From: Escherichia phage wV7 | Reading direction: 5' to 3' (one strand) | Sequence record: NC_019505.1 | Length of the DNA: 64,000 bases | Shown: positions 11,875 to 19,986 of the stretch, piece by piece | Layout of the letters: every line of letters starts with the position of its first letter | Numbering within the stretch: the first letter of the stretch is position 1 | The notes under the pieces: generated by a model | Told to the model about the DNA's origin: nothing | The model's input: only the letters and a program-made list of their open reading frames with translations | Databases searched by the model: none | Translations under genes and position numbers: made by a program

Positions 11875-12195
11875 TTATAGCGTAATCCATTCTCGTACTA
11901 TCTGAGTTACTACACGTTCATGGGGCTCGACTAGTTCAACAGTCGGAACTGCATAATACCAGTCAGAATGATAAGAACCTGACCGAGATTCATTTACCGC
12001 TACATGTACATTATGTTTTGGACTAAAGTAAACACACTGACGATATTGACATTTACCATCTTGCACCCAGTCTTCTATTTCGACAGGTTTAAGATAATCG
12101 GAAAAATCGAAATCATAGTTTTCCGAAAATGCATCATGGTCTTCAATGATTTCGCTCAGAACTGCATCAACATCTAATTTATTTTCAATAGTCAT
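11875..12195 (-). CDS. Hypothetical protein
   Basis: 106-aa ORF. Confidence 0.5.
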   Translation of the reverse strand: MTIENKLDVDAVLSEIIEDHDAFSENYDFDFSDYLKPVEIEDWVQDGKCQYRQCVYFSPKHNVHVAVNESRSGSYHSDWYYAVPTVELVEPHERVVTQIVREWITL

Positions 12196-12855: not shown

Positions 12856-13098
12856 TTATTCCTTAATTCCTAGTACTTGTTTAAAAGTCTCGTCGTAATC
12901 AAGACTTTGGCCCGTTTGTTCTTTATGTTTGTATATAATATCACTTACTTCTGATAGCATATTTTTATATGAACGAGTTAAAGCAGATTTAAGCACGCTG
13001 TATCTATCAGGAAATTTACCATGTTCATTATAATAAGCTATTGCTAATTCACGGACTGCCTTTTCAGCAGCCTCCATATATTCTTTACGCTTGGTCAT
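12856..13098 (-). CDS. Hypothetical protein (nrdC.1 position)
   Basis: 80-aa ORF. Confidence 0.5.
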
Positions 13099-13100
13099 TT

Positions 13101-13490
13101 TTAATCCAAAATATTATTAGGCATTGGTTGAACACTCACAAGTTCTTTAAAGAACTCAGTAGAGTCAGGCAATTTAACCATTTCCGGAGCATGCTTACTG
13201 AATTTATGTTTACATTGACGGCATTTATATTCAAGCTCTGGTTTACGCCAGTTAATCAACTGAACTTGTTCAGTACCGCATTCAGGGCAATTAGGAACGT
13301 TTTTAGAAGCTCTTTCACGTCGTTCAACCATAGCCATAATAGCATCCCATGCTGGAGGTTTAAAATCTAAATCGTCGCAGCCGTGAATCTTTCCACGCAT
13401 TTCCATATCATCTTCCTCACCAGCCATAATAATTTTAATTAAACTGGAATTACTTGAAGCTGCAATGTCTTCTAATAAACGCTTTTTCAT
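13101..13490 (-). CDS. Zinc-ribbon protein (nrdC.2 position)
   Basis: 129 aa with CPECG ... CRQC four-Cys pattern. Confidence 0.55.
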
Positions 13491-14413
13491 TTCAATACCT
13501 CAATAGCATTACGTAAACCATTTGCTTTGGCGGTTAAAGCCTTAAGAACTTTAGTATGCTCTTCAATTTGTTTTTCAACTTCAGTCAAACGGACATTGAG
13601 ATATTCACGTTCTTCTTTCATAGTATCATTTCCATGATTGGATTTTGGTATAGGTTTAAATTCACTAGGGTCCTTTAATTTAATAACAAATTTAGTTTCA
13701 AACAGTGAAAGACCATAATTCGTATTATCATCAAAGGATTTGACTACATCCATATCAGATAATAACACGCGCAAATTATAAGCCAAAGAACTAATAGTTT
13801 CATTGTGTTTATTAGCTTCGCGTGGTTTCATATACGGAAGATTTTTATATATCTCATGCGGAGCGCAAACGATAATTGACAATTCAAATTGTCCATTCTG
13901 GGACAATGGAATGAATTTAGCCGTAACCCAGTCTTTTACATTCACATTAATAGTACGGTTATCACCATGACAAAACAGTCTACGAGAATGCTTAAAAAGC
14001 ATATTCACGTTATTATTGAATTCGTGTGAAAATTCACTAGCAAATTTTTCTTTACTATCTTTAGAAAACCATTCTTCTAAATAAGTTCTTTTCACGTCGT
14101 TAATAATATTAAATGTAACAACACTAGCATTTGATACATTAGTCTTAATGTAGCTTGGATACATAAATTTTTTAACATTATTAACAGCTATCACAGAAGA
14201 TAGTAATCGGGAACGTTTGAACCACTCGAGCAAAGAACCAAGAGAATGTGAATACGCATTTTGTGTATCTTTACAAATATGGTTTTCCCATCCAATATAG
14301 TCTAAAAAATCACGAAGAATATTATTGATTACTGCTCTGTGTCCGATTTGATAATTACGGTGTTTAGTAATAAGACTGTCAAAATAATCAATATAATGTT
14401 TACGAGTTTTCAT
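13487..14413 (-). CDS. Uncharacterised protein with C-terminal coiled coil (family member 1 of 4)
   Basis: 308 aa; C-terminal heptad-like segment ...[33 protein letters not shown]. Confidence 0.6.
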   Translation of the reverse strand: MKTRKHYIDYFDSLITKHRNYQIGHRAVINNILRDFLDYIGWENHICKDTQNAYSHSLGSLLEWFKRSRLLSSVIAVNNVKKFMYPSYIKTNVSNASVVTFNIINDVKRTYLEEWFSKDSKEKFASEFSHEFNNNVNMLFKHSRRLFCHGDNRTINVNVKDWVTAKFIPLSQNGQFELSIIVCAPHEIYKNLPYMKPREANKHNETISSLAYNLRVLLSDMDVVKSFDDNTNYGLSLFETKFVIKLKDPSEFKPIPKSNHGNDTMKEEREYLNVRLTEVEKQIEEHTKVLKALTAKANGLRNAIEVLK

Positions 14414-14465
14414 GTTCTTCTCACTTGGTTAATGATTTATACTCCGAGCCATCCTTGGCTTTAAA

Positions 14466-15467
14466 TTACTTAATTAACTGTAAAGCTTGTTCAAGACGAT
14501 CAAGACGATTAACGGATTCTTCCCAAATCTTTTTAGCCTGCTCATATTCTTTCTGCGCTTTATTAGAAATTTCTAGAACTTCTTTATAAGCTTTTTCTAG
14601 TGCAATAACTTCTGGACGAATTTCTACCGGTTCAGGTGAATCATCAAGATTATCCATTAGTTCCTCAAGGGTAGTTTCTTCTTTAGGAGTATTCACAATT
14701 TCATCACATTTTTGTTGGTAAATTTCTTTATCAGTAGGTGAATAAGCACATTTCACTTCACGAAGACTAACTACAATTTTATATCCTTCCCAGCCGCATA
14801 TATTCTTAAAAGGATAAGTATGAATATTTTCTACTGTTTCCATACAGCCCAAAACCGCCTCTAATTGATAAGTTATAGTGCTAGCAATTGAGAAAAATTT
14901 ATTAATATTCTTTTGGTTAGCGTTTGGTGTAAAAAATCCATAATTCACAAAAATAGCTACTTTATTTTCATCAAGCTCATATTCTTTTACGATAATCATA
15001 TCAGAAGCCAAAGGATGAATTTGACGATAATCGCCATAACATAATTTAGAAGCTGATTTTAGAATTTGTCCTTTGAAAAGTCTGAAATTACTAATCCAAC
15101 GACGAGTAAAAATATTCTCAGGGTCTTCTTTATTATTAAGATGATAAGAATTAACATCACCGAACCAATTATATCCTACTACATCTTTAGTTCGTTTAAT
15201 TTCTTTCCCAAATTTACTAAGAATATCTCTGTTGACTAAGTATGAAAGAAGACGAGACCCTTTAAAGGTTTTCTTAATGTCATCTTTATCTGTACGACTA
15301 GAAATTTTACGAACTTCATGAATAAATTTGCCGGAAGAAACAATACTTGCATCAGTATTATTGAGCCATTGATTGATAATAGAAATCACACTATTCTTAC
15401 TAGACATAGGTTTAACTTTATCATCAATAACGCTGTTGAACGATTTAATATATTCGTTGCGAGTCAT
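14466..15467 (-). CDS. Uncharacterised protein with C-terminal coiled coil (family member 2 of 4)
   Basis: ORF 14466-15497; start taken at internal Met preceded by GAGGAG; C-terminal ...NRLDRLEQALQLIK. Confidence 0.6.
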   Translation of the reverse strand: MTRNEYIKSFNSVIDDKVKPMSSKNSVISIINQWLNNTDASIVSSGKFIHEVRKISSRTDKDDIKKTFKGSRLLSYLVNRDILSKFGKEIKRTKDVVGYNWFGDVNSYHLNNKEDPENIFTRRWISNFRLFKGQILKSASKLCYGDYRQIHPLASDMIIVKEYELDENKVAIFVNYGFFTPNANQKNINKFFSIASTITYQLEAVLGCMETVENIHTYPFKNICGWEGYKIVVSLREVKCAYSPTDKEIYQQKCDEIVNTPKEETTLEELMDNLDDSPEPVEIRPEVIALEKAYKEVLEISNKAQKEYEQAKKIWEESVNRLDRLEQALQLIK

Positions 15468-15524
15468 ATTAATCTCCTCAGTAGAAAGTAAGAACATTAT
15501 ACCACATCCTTGTGGCGAAGTAAA

Positions 15525-16544
15525 CTAGTTTAGTGCATTTAGTGCATTGTTCAGTTTAGAACGTTGCTTTGTCAGATTTTGAACCCTTGACTGAGCTTGT
15601 TCTAACACCTTTTCAGCTTCTAGCACTTCATTGGTCGCTTTAACGAGTTCATCATCTACTGCCTTAAGAGACTTCTCAATCGCATCCGCGTGCCATTTTT
15701 CAACAGGTTTAAGACTCGGATTTTCAATAGGAAGAAAATTCACTTTATTAAATTTCCATGCATCTTTATTACCTGAGCTATACATCCAAAATTTAGGATC
15801 GTTTGATGAGCAATTAGATAAATTTAAGTTATCTTGCACTTCCTGCTTTTTCTCTTGCGGGACTTCATCCTTTCTCAAAAAATCGTATTTAAATGAAACG
15901 ATCATATCAAGTTCATACGTTGTTGTATGTTCCCAATTTCGCTCAAAATGAGGTAAAATCTTAGACCGAACAGCGGCAACAACATCCATATACTTAAATG
16001 CTTCTGTCAACTGTGATTTAAGGCATTCACAAATTGAAAGAGAATTTTTTGTATTAGGTTTAAAGCTAATTCGTGCAGTTCTATTATTTTCTTTTAATGG
16101 TCTTACTTCCATCTGAAGAGTATAACCATCAAATTTCAGGTTCTTTAAGTTAATGTCAGAACCTTTTAATCGACTAGCCGTCGACAAAATTTGCTTTAAT
16201 TGTTTACGGAATAGAGCAATAAATCTCCATTCAAGACGGTAATGATTTGGATTAAAAAATCCTGTTGATAAATCAACCTTACTCTGACCAACGCCTTGAA
16301 CAAATAGAGGATTTTTATAATCAATAGTTTTACAGAAATCGGTGAGCTGTTCGCGAGCAGTCATTTGCGTAATATATCCAGCTTTATCAAAATGTCGCAG
16401 CCATTCACTGCTATTCATATACTTAAAGTGAATGGAACTATTAACTCTATCAGGGTCTAAATTATTTTGGCACAAAAATGTCATAACATCACGAGTATAG
16501 CTGGCATTACGAACCATATCTTCAATTTGAGAACGAGTTTTCAT
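15525..16544 (-). CDS. Uncharacterised protein with C-terminal coiled coil (family member 3 of 4)
   Basis: 339 aa; C-terminal ...LEAEKVLEQAQSRVQNLTKQRSKLNNALNALN. Confidence 0.6.
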   Translation of the reverse strand: MKTRSQIEDMVRNASYTRDVMTFLCQNNLDPDRVNSSIHFKYMNSSEWLRHFDKAGYITQMTAREQLTDFCKTIDYKNPLFVQGVGQSKVDLSTGFFNPNHYRLEWRFIALFRKQLKQILSTASRLKGSDINLKNLKFDGYTLQMEVRPLKENNRTARISFKPNTKNSLSICECLKSQLTEAFKYMDVVAAVRSKILPHFERNWEHTTTYELDMIVSFKYDFLRKDEVPQEKKQEVQDNLNLSNCSSNDPKFWMYSSGNKDAWKFNKVNFLPIENPSLKPVEKWHADAIEKSLKAVDDELVKATNEVLEAEKVLEQAQSRVQNLTKQRSKLNNALNALN

Positions 16545-16552
16545 GGTGTTCC

Positions 16553-17455
16553 TTAAGATTTAAGTAAATCAACAATTTTAATTAATTTTTCACGTTCAGA
16601 TTTAGCTTTACTACTCAATCCAGATAGTCTGAATATTTCATCATCATATTGTTGAATAGAAATATTTAGCTCTTCAATTTGCTTATTAAAATAATCAATT
16701 TGTTCAGAATGTTTTTCGTTACTACGAACTGGTACAGGTTTTGTAGGTAATTTAGATGAACTGGATTCATCCGGGCGATAAATTAAAATACAACTTGAAC
16801 CAATTGGACATTTTGCACCAGATGAATATTCTAATGTTCCGGCTTCTTTTAAAACTTCAAAAGCTAAACAGAGATGATGCCCCATATTAACATAATCTGT
16901 AGAGCGAGCTCTGACGTAATAATCATCTCCGCGAATACTAAATTTAAAGCATTTAAGGTCTTCTGTATTATTTGTCTTAAAAATCATTTGTTTATCTAGA
17001 CCTTTAGCTAATCGAGCGCCTAATGCTAATAATCGTCGTTGATTTTCCCACAAATCAGCGATCATTTGGTCAAATGATAATTTCGGCATTAGTCGACCAT
17101 AAAGGTCATATCCTTTATTATAATTGCGAAGGATTTCACTCGCATTAATACGAGACAACGCTCCAATTTTATTAAGGGCTTTCATGATGCGATTAGATAA
17201 ACCCATTCCAGACCCGTTTGTTCGTTGTAAATGTTTATCTAATCCAAACCCAATATCAACTTTAAATTTATCTAAAATTTCAGCATGAACATCTCTGTCA
17301 ATAACATTCAAATCCAAAGTTGGGTTAAATCTATGAAAAAATTTATCTGGCTCTCCACGACGAAGTATAGTCCATTCATTTAATTTTTTATTAACTAAAG
17401 ATTTAATTACTGTATTGACATTATTAATTACTACTGACATATTTTTCTCACTCAA
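16553..17455 (-). CDS. Uncharacterised protein with C-terminal coiled coil (family member 4 of 4)
   Basis: 300 aa; C-terminal ...IEELNISIQQYDDEIFRLSGLSSKAKSEREKLIKIVDLLKS. Confidence 0.6.
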   Translation of the reverse strand: MSEKNMSVVINNVNTVIKSLVNKKLNEWTILRRGEPDKFFHRFNPTLDLNVIDRDVHAEILDKFKVDIGFGLDKHLQRTNGSGMGLSNRIMKALNKIGALSRINASEILRNYNKGYDLYGRLMPKLSFDQMIADLWENQRRLLALGARLAKGLDKQMIFKTNNTEDLKCFKFSIRGDDYYVRARSTDYVNMGHHLCLAFEVLKEAGTLEYSSGAKCPIGSSCILIYRPDESSSSKLPTKPVPVRSNEKHSEQIDYFNKQIEELNISIQQYDDEIFRLSGLSSKAKSEREKLIKIVDLLKS

Positions 17456-17911: not shown

Positions 17912-18439
17912 TTATGCGAGTACCGTCTTTAACCGTTCTTCAAACTTCCGAAGAGTATTTTGGCGTTCAGCTCTTTGCTTTTTGTAAGTTTCAATACGCT
18001 CTGAAATGAGAGTGTATCGTTCATTTACTGATTCTTTCATAAAATCAGGAATTTCACGAGAAGCTTTAATCTCATCAAATTTATCAATAACAGCTTGCTC
18101 TTCAGCAATTAAGTTATCATACATCAAAATATCTTTCTTGATGAACTCAATATCTTCTTGAGTTACACGAGATAATTTAGATGCTTTATCCTTTTTGTAC
18201 TGTTCGTTAGTATCACGAGACCAGTGTAATGTACGATTTTTATTCGTATTCTTGTAAATTTCTACAATACCAATCTCATCAATAATAACGATCCAATTCC
18301 AACGGGATTTGTAAATTTGTCCTCCATCAACTGTGATTTCACCTCCGATTGAGATGTCATTAAAGAACTTGCTTTGTGCTTCAGATTTAAATTTACCATC
18401 GTTGTAATTTACCAGGTTGAAAATATCTTTAGCGTTCAT
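17912..18439 (-). CDS. Hypothetical protein
   Basis: ORF 17912-18499; true start at internal Met (MNAKDIF...) because the first 20 codons are a translated early promoter. Confidence 0.55.
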   Translation of the reverse strand: MNAKDIFNLVNYNDGKFKSEAQSKFFNDISIGGEITVDGGQIYKSRWNWIVIIDEIGIVEIYKNTNKNRTLHWSRDTNEQYKKDKASKLSRVTQEDIEFIKKDILMYDNLIAEEQAVIDKFDEIKASREIPDFMKESVNERYTLISERIETYKKQRAERQNTLRKFEERLKTVLA

Positions 18440-19960: not shown

Positions 19961-19984
19961 AAAAAAGGGAGCCCGAAGGCTCCC
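19961..19984 (-). terminator. Rho-independent terminator (UUCG hairpin plus U-run)
   Basis: Minus RNA GGGAGCC-UUCG-GGCUCCC followed by UUUUUU. Confidence 0.65.
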
Positions 19985-19986
19985 TA

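Follow-up and report, generated by a model that had tools for sequence, protein, structure and literature searches.

What do four large, consecutive early genes contribute to a T4-type phage, and do they belong together? The question arises at positions 13487–17455 of a 64,000-nucleotide stretch of the Escherichia phage wV7 genome (NC_019505.1; the whole stretch is called the window here). The original prediction, made from the letters alone, had noticed four minus-strand open reading frames (ORFs) of 300–343 amino acids (aa), each with a heptad-rich C-terminal helix. Judged by their sequences, these are the T4 genes nrdC.3, nrdC.4, nrdC.5 and nrdC.6. Profile comparisons and predicted structures indicate that all four are tandem paralogues within one Straboviridae (T4-type phage) protein family, one of whose members, nrdC.5, has a T4 orthologue with a published role against the sirtuin defence Dsr1.

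The ORFs lie consecutively at 13487–14413 (308 aa), 14466–15497 (343 aa), 15525–16544 (339 aa) and 16553–17455 (300 aa), just as first described, and two of the starts probably need moving:

13487–14413, minus strand: nrdC.3, 308 aa; member of PF26897 (Phage_T4_Y04OP) and phrog_1435
14466–15467, minus strand: nrdC.4, 333 aa from the ATG at 15467 (the ORF reaches 15497); PF26897 and phrog_1435, paralogue of nrdC.3
15525–16544, minus strand: nrdC.5, 339 aa; Pfam DUF7235 (PF23882), orthologue of the T4 anti-Dsr1 protein
16553–17440, minus strand: nrdC.6, 295 aa from the ATG at 17440 (the ORF reaches a TTG at 17455); PF26899 (Phage_T4_Y05B) and phrog_2257

The 3,969-base stretch that holds them has 100% identity to E. 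coli O157 typing phage 7 and 90–95% identity to about 450 further Tequatrovirus genomes, T4, T2, AR1 and PP01 among them, and the window is assigned to Tequatrovirus on its sequence. The names of the genes and of their neighbours were confirmed by synteny with AR1 and T4.

Common ancestry and shared architecture

Databases distribute the four proteins over three families: PF26897 (nrdC.3 and nrdC.4), DUF7235 (nrdC.5) and PF26899 (nrdC.6), with PHROGs 1435, 2351 and 2257 for the same three sets. Pfam keeps these as separate families, PF26897 and PF26899 being of unknown function. The assignments to PHROGs are strong (phrog_1435 at 1.1e-98 for nrdC.3 and 1.6e-167 for nrdC.4; phrog_2257 at 3.8e-152 for nrdC.6), and nrdC.5 matches the DUF7235 hidden Markov model (HMM) over profile positions 1–307 of 307 with 409 bits (E = 1.9e-122; gathering score 30 bits). 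Membership of PF26897 was read by proxy from the precomputed labels of cluster representatives 93–97% identical to nrdC.3 and nrdC.4, and that of PF26899 from labelled homologues 94–98% identical to nrdC.6. The DUF7235 HMM gave a weak match to nrdC.3, in the tail only (0.042), and none to nrdC.4 or nrdC.6.

An all-against-all BLASTP search linked a single pair, nrdC.3 and nrdC.4 (25% identity, 5e-5), which hhalign also joined (98%). For nrdC.5 and nrdC.6, hhalign was uninformative with shallow family profiles and became informative once distant members from other genera had been added. The extended nrdC.5 profile then matched the nrdC.3/4 profile at 95.4% (E = 2e-8, 132 columns), and the alignment falls in the core of the proteins, pairing nrdC.5 residues 52–202 with nrdC.4 residues 68–225. 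The match of nrdC.6 to the nrdC.3/4 profile reached 81% (E = 1.2e-5), or 48% in the opposite direction, and pairs nrdC.6 residues 82–168 with nrdC.4 residues 61–165. The weakest link of the paralogy is the direct comparison of nrdC.5 with nrdC.6 (8%, E = 0.004).

By its profile matches, a 292-aa protein of the Yersinia phage phiR1-RT bridges nrdC.6 and the nrdC.3/4 pair. It matches an nrdC.6 HMM built without it (2.7e-5), as well as the nrdC.3/4 profile (95.4%, E = 1.8e-8, 194 columns). In a Foldseek search, the predicted structure of nrdC.4 matched the BFVD model of nrdC.6 from phage JS10 (E = 3.9e-5, probability 1.0), together with uncharacterised Straboviridae proteins of about 300 aa, also at probability 1.0, from phages of Acinetobacter, Klebsiella, Pectobacterium, Erwinia, Serratia, Enterobacter and Yersinia. 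Alignment and structure prediction, proposed at the outset as checks, thus join one pair by BLASTP and extend common ancestry to all four through profiles and fold, in keeping with the duplication and diversification that had been suggested.

This analysis establishes, besides paralogy, a common architecture and a variable copy number. In each protein a helical region at the N-terminus leads into an α/β core (helix-hairpin-helix-hairpin), and a linker with little order connects this core to the heptad helix of 40–60 residues at the C-terminus. The core was delimited in nrdC.4:

14748–15212, minus strand: α/β core of nrdC.4, aa 86–240, common to all four proteins

It contains strands at 88–110, helices at 119–148, a hairpin at 158–174, a helix at 185–208 and a second hairpin at 212–235. 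AlphaFold2 (AF2) models of nrdC.4 and nrdC.5 have an identical order of elements (helix, hairpin, helix, hairpin, linker, long helix), with a low-confidence linker of 30–55 residues between head and tail. The nrdC.5 model is poor because the nrdC.5 family proper is very narrow: HMMER, run exhaustively against 1.84 billion representatives, found only 13 hits. The fold search made with this model was taken as a weak hint only. Motifs held in common are F-K-x-S-R-L-L-S...L..F, followed by I-L-K-x-A-x-K-L-x-x-G-D and then L..Q-L..A-L..M-D-x-V; an M(K)TR N-terminus is common to nrdC.3, nrdC.4 and nrdC.5.

Two further proteins may be very distant members of the family. A 386-aa protein of the Acinetobacter phage ZZ1 (L007, 15620–16780) and a 328-aa protein of phiR1-RT (L006, 12224–13210) each have a weak profile match and a heptad tail with a terminal motif (…LESALSILR… and …SSLETLK…, respectively). 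The neighbouring gene nrdC.8 was considered as a short member and rejected, since despite its helical C-terminus it has no profile similarity to the four.

Heptad-repeat tails

All four proteins end in what appears, from sequence and models, to be an uninterrupted heptad-repeat helix with hydrophobic a and d positions, a candidate coiled coil:

13490–13615, minus strand: nrdC.3 heptad tail, aa 267–308, ending ...LRNAIEVLK; 11 core positions, LLVIHLLALIL, aa 272–307
14469–14615, minus strand: nrdC.4 helix and heptad tail, aa 285–333, ending ...LEQALQLIK; AF2 helix 285–332, 14 core positions
15528–15707, minus strand: nrdC.5 helix and heptad tail, aa 280–339, ending ...LNNALNALN; AF2 helix 280–338, 16 core positions, AILVLAVALAVLRLLL
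16556–16708, minus strand: nrdC.6 heptad tail, aa 245–295, ending ...KIVDLLKS; 14 core positions, IFILIYILSARLVL, aa 248–293

The best 28-residue heptad window lies within the last 60 residues of every protein. Uninterrupted 3–4 hydrophobic spacing continues for 11 core positions in nrdC.3, 14 in nrdC.4, 16 in nrdC.5 and 14 in nrdC.6, giving runs of 5.5–8 heptads that contain no proline and stop one or two residues before the C-terminus. When the window's 75 non-overlapping ORFs were ranked by heptad run score, nrdC.5 came first, with nrdC.6 and nrdC.4 joint third; the shorter nrdC.3 tail (about 5.5 heptads) scored unexceptionally. The other top scorers look, by their core residues, like hydrophobic and probably membrane segments. 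The score was an ad hoc one (not COILS or MARCOIL), and its z-scores against shuffled sequences were modest (0.8–4.1); the case for the tails therefore rests on their unbroken register, C-terminal position, conservation and AF2 helices. In both modelled proteins AF2 predicts a single continuous helix, of 48 residues in nrdC.4 (285–332; predicted local distance difference test (pLDDT) of the model 84.3, predicted template modelling score 0.68) and of 59 residues in nrdC.5 (280–338; local pLDDT 77–92). A straight helix of 48–59 residues could hardly be buried by a head of about 250 aa. The heptad-rich helices first noticed in the raw sequence are thus borne out in all four proteins.

Within the orthologous groups of nrdC.3, nrdC.4 and nrdC.5, no segment is as conserved as the tail; in the nrdC.6 group, tail and core are equally conserved. 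Tail identity is 87% in nrdC.3 (65–80% in other regions), 73% in nrdC.4 (51–61%), 61% in nrdC.5 (46–55%) and 72% in nrdC.6 (64–72%). Between the window and T4, the last 50 aligned positions of nrdC.4 are 100% identical and the remainder 89%. Beyond the heptad register, the tails of different paralogues have in common only an L-x-x-A-[LI]-x-x-L-[KN] motif at their end, and this motif also occurs in the phiR1-RT and ZZ1 proteins.

The nrdC.5 profile also found a 173-aa protein (P0258) in which an unrelated N-terminus of about 110 residues precedes a near-identical nrdC.5 tail of about 50 residues. Because of this combination, the nrdC.5-type tail seems to be a portable module that moves between proteins.

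Anti-defence neighbourhood and possible roles

The original prediction could assign no function to the four genes, a statement that is outdated for nrdC.5. An evolved T4 clone with deletions was unable to infect ECOR17 owing to the sirtuin defence Dsr1, and T4 nrdC.5 supplied in trans restored plating on dsr1-carrying cells, an activity demonstrated for the T4 allele only (Srikant et al., eLife 2022; PMC9391042). The window gene is, as far as sequence and position can tell, its orthologue: the proteins are 92.4% identical over 340 columns, of equal length and position, and the gene order around nrdC.5 is that of T4 and AR1. For comparison, nrdC.3 is 91% identical to its T4 counterpart. The paralogues nrdC.3, nrdC.4 and nrdC.6 differ from T4 NrdC.5 in being remote (<25% identical), with a like architecture. 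Of the two family types first proposed, anti-defence thus holds for at least one member, and host range of the adsorption type found no supporting evidence.

Phages make their major capsid protein late in infection. This protein is what the Dsr1 sensor recognises, as shown for a Drexlerviridae phage (Nature 2026; PMC13581612). An early inhibitor could therefore act before the trigger is made. Early expression of the array, which had been presumed from the start, agrees with the wording 'T4 early gene nrdC.5' in PMC9391042 and with a promoter annotated in T4:

15496–15524, minus strand: promoter-like site of the sigma-70 type, TTTACT-17-TATAAT with an extended -10 TG, upstream of nrdC.4

The position of this site (15524–15496) coincides with that of 'early promoter 50.0' in the T4 record U76612. 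Overall, the promoter and terminator scan did not exceed its shuffled background, and the only site used was the one that matches the T4-annotated promoter. Because of this site, and because T4 nrdC.4 encodes 333 aa, the ATG at 15467 is most likely the start of nrdC.4. The most likely start of nrdC.6 is the ATG at 17440, since its homologues have 295–296 aa and cover 98% of the ORF.

Three further genes of the same early block bear on the setting of the array:

11875–12195, minus strand: 49.2, orthologue of a published OLD inhibitor
12856–13098, minus strand: nrdC.1, orthologue of a published Septu inhibitor
17912–18439, minus strand: nrdC.8, orthologue of a published Druantia III inhibitor; ends in a long helix

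Gp49.2 inhibits OLD (PMC13096335), and the HIDEN-SEQ preprint reports that nrdC.1 inhibits Septu and bas37_0203 Druantia III; bas37_0203 corresponds to nrdC.8 in position and size and is taken as its orthologue. The array sits within an anti-defence island, because the orthologues of 49.2, nrdC.1 and nrdC.8 are published defence inhibitors. These three share the early block with the array and are non-essential and host-dependent, but they are small proteins unrelated to those of nrdC.3–nrdC.6. In the HIDEN-SEQ data, nrdC.3 to nrdC.6 were scored non-essential on K-12, both in T4 and in Bas37.

The explanation we lean towards is that the array consists of early, non-essential paralogues, each of which would bind and neutralise its own target among the host immune proteins, ahead of the late phage proteins that set off those defences. 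The head (N-terminal region and core) would supply specificity and diverge quickly, and the tail, conserved within each orthologous group, would drive homo-oligomerisation and so raise avidity towards defence proteins that are themselves oligomers. What we infer here is that the proteins bind directly, that the tails make them oligomerise and that nrdC.3, nrdC.4 and nrdC.6 have anti-defence roles. A functional analogue of nrdC.5 is DSAD1 of phage SPbeta, which inhibits the DSR2 sirtuin defence and likewise stops a SIR2-type NADase that senses a virion protein. DSAD1 belongs to another phage group, has another target and showed no sequence similarity to nrdC.5; a search of Protein Data Bank (PDB) chains with the nrdC.5 profile, at E up to 1, matched no anti-defence protein, the DSR2–DSAD1 complexes being assumed to be among those chains.

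Several points weigh against this explanation. The nrdC.5 model is poor overall (pLDDT 54.6), and the sequence link to nrdC.6 is moderate (48–81%), resting partly on predicted structures. The nrdC.5 tail has three alanines at core positions, and antiparallel or intramolecular packing would fit as well. The mechanism of nrdC.5 is unpublished, and its effect on Dsr1 could be indirect. A literature search found no paper on nrdC.3, nrdC.4 or nrdC.6, on how nrdC.5 works or on the relationship among the four, and no experiment tying any of nrdC.3, nrdC.4 and nrdC.6 to a defence system; in the main text of HIDEN-SEQ, none of these three is named among the genes conditionally essential on the clinical isolates tested. 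Sequence searches of Pfam, NCBIfam, PADLOC and the PDB gave no functional lead besides DUF7235. The sole match to the PADLOC defence models was that of the nrdC.4 tail to BrxC (13.7 bits), which is coiled-coil noise.

The family could be real and its role different. Host physiology is the target of many non-essential early genes of T4, and nrdC.3, nrdC.4 and nrdC.6 might serve host takeover, regulation or phage exclusion, with the action of nrdC.5 on Dsr1 being special or indirect. No phenotype has been reported for these three genes, they are non-essential on K-12, and they have no meaningful match to defence or anti-defence models. However, the only member of known function is anti-defence, as are three unrelated neighbours, and variable copy number, rapid divergence of the heads and natural deletions are typical of arms-race genes; we consider an accessory function outside defence possible, if doubtful. 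A single machine, in which the four tails pair with one another in one hetero-oligomeric complex, would suit the adjacency of the genes, the heptad register common to the last residue and the similar terminal motif. It is unlikely, as genera carry one, two, three or four members in differing combinations, and nrdC.5 alone rescues a phage clone with large deletions (the clone's other losses in the array were not checked). Moreover, the tails are conserved within each paralogue and differ between paralogues, which favours specific self-association.

More speculatively, a phage tail-terminator or tail-completion protein may have given rise to the α/β core, with the family acting as a harmless virion-protein decoy that occupies the sensors of pattern-recognition defences. 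The family differs in several ways from tail terminator and completion proteins (lambda gpU, T5 p142, SPP1 gp17-like, DUF3168). The nrdC proteins lack sequence similarity to them, are three times larger and have extra N-terminal helices and a predicted coiled-coil tail; the nrdC genes are early, dispensable and located not in the late module of tail genes but in the early nrdC block, behind an early promoter. Searches of Pfam, the PDB and PHROGs likewise returned no tail-family match for the nrdC.3–nrdC.6 proteins, and such a decoy seems more improbable still than the hetero-oligomer. In a broader form, a widespread Straboviridae 'inhibitor scaffold' would combine a neck (tail-terminator-like) fold with a portable coiled-coil module, its copies serving as oligomeric decoys of different sensors; this is a long shot, about on a par with the hetero-oligomer. 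Last, the four proteins might be unrelated, their C-terminal helices similar by convergence or chance. The single BLASTP pair and the three database families would allow this, but the profile–profile matches fall in the core and not in the tail alone, the phiR1-RT protein supplies a bridge, the fold match has probability 1.0 and the gene order is conserved across genera. Unrelated folds, named at the outset as what would overturn the family, are contradicted by these matches, and we regard this last alternative as hardly credible.

These genes are long-known T4 ORFs, one with a published anti-defence role, so that the finding does not open a new category. Its new part is the joining of PF26897, DUF7235 and PF26899, supported by profiles and models, into one probable superfamily with a conserved design and a variable copy number. 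About 4 kb of the early region of T4, the reference lytic phage, had been catalogued as encoding four proteins with no known function and no relationship to one another. If nrdC.3, nrdC.4 and nrdC.6 are paralogues of the anti-Dsr1 protein, they are three candidates for new counter-defence activities. A variable head on a conserved tail offers a framework for asking how nrdC.5 stops a sirtuin NADase. A length of about 300 aa, the core motifs and a predicted coiled coil ending in L-x-x-A-L-x-x-L-K provide a signature for gene finding in Straboviridae, which may be of use in choosing or engineering therapeutic phages that face host immunity. Were the inhibitor scaffold to prove true, nrdC.3, nrdC.4 and nrdC.6 would reveal three further pairs of defence and counter-defence, and a general, retargetable means to disarm sensors of virion proteins.

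Gene content across genera and neighbouring features

Presence and absence across T4-like genomes, a comparison that had been suggested, revealed variable copy number and gene content together with natural deletions. The order 6-5-(4)-(3) is retained across genera and the content differs: 6-5-4-3 in Tequatrovirus, 6-5-3 in RB69 (Mosigvirus) and 6-5-4 in CJ20 (Gaprivervirus), with one member in Klebsiella phage 311F and at least one in phiR1-RT. Copy number among Tevenvirinae genera ranges from one to four. Sequence searches detected no member at the nrdC.3–nrdC.6 locus of RB16, Miro, 44RR2.8t or ZZ1.

In natural T4-like contigs (L002, 5001–5900, and L003, 2362–3261), nrdC.5 residues 145–268 are fused in frame to nrdC.3 residues ~138–308 (protein P0056). 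The junction is a short common N-(K/N)-V-N, nrdC.4 is deleted, and a 115-aa ORF upstream (L002, 4570–4917) is an N-terminal remnant of nrdC.5. The gene looks like a natural recombination or deletion scar within the array. A collinear nrdC.3/nrdC.5 hybrid was considered and rejected; as a deletion fusion, P0056 is uninformative on domain equivalence. The RB69 gene annotated as nrdC.5 (L004, 14348–15250; 300 aa) matches the DUF7235 core (5e-8) and has no heptad tail. Its last ~50 residues resemble out-of-frame sequence; the copy may be decaying, or a sequencing error may have shifted its frame.

Two of the phages in which the array is absent, 44RR2.8t of Aeromonas (L009, 13769–15223 and 8013–9071) and Miro of Klebsiella (L010, 7100–8161), carry nicotinamide adenine dinucleotide (NAD+) salvage genes in the same region, encoding nicotinamide phosphoribosyltransferase and nicotinamide mononucleotide adenylyltransferase/Nudix. 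These could be a different answer to defences that deplete NAD+.

In the window, 49, pin, 49.1, 49.2, nrdC, nrdC.1 and nrdC.2 lie downstream of the array, and nrdC.7 to nrdC.11 upstream. The adjoining nrdC.2 (13101–13490, minus strand) encodes 129 aa with a CxxC...CxxC zinc-ribbon motif, as in phage Bas37 (a 390-bp gene); in T4 and AR1 it encodes 104 aa (315 bp). By length, the one property compared, nrdC.2 appears to exist in alternative forms. Farther upstream, between nrdC.11 and nrdC.10, lies a perfect GC-rich hairpin readable on both strands (19966–19985), AGGGAGCC-TTCG-GGCTCCCT, followed by a T run, which in sequence looks like an intrinsic terminator inside the early block.

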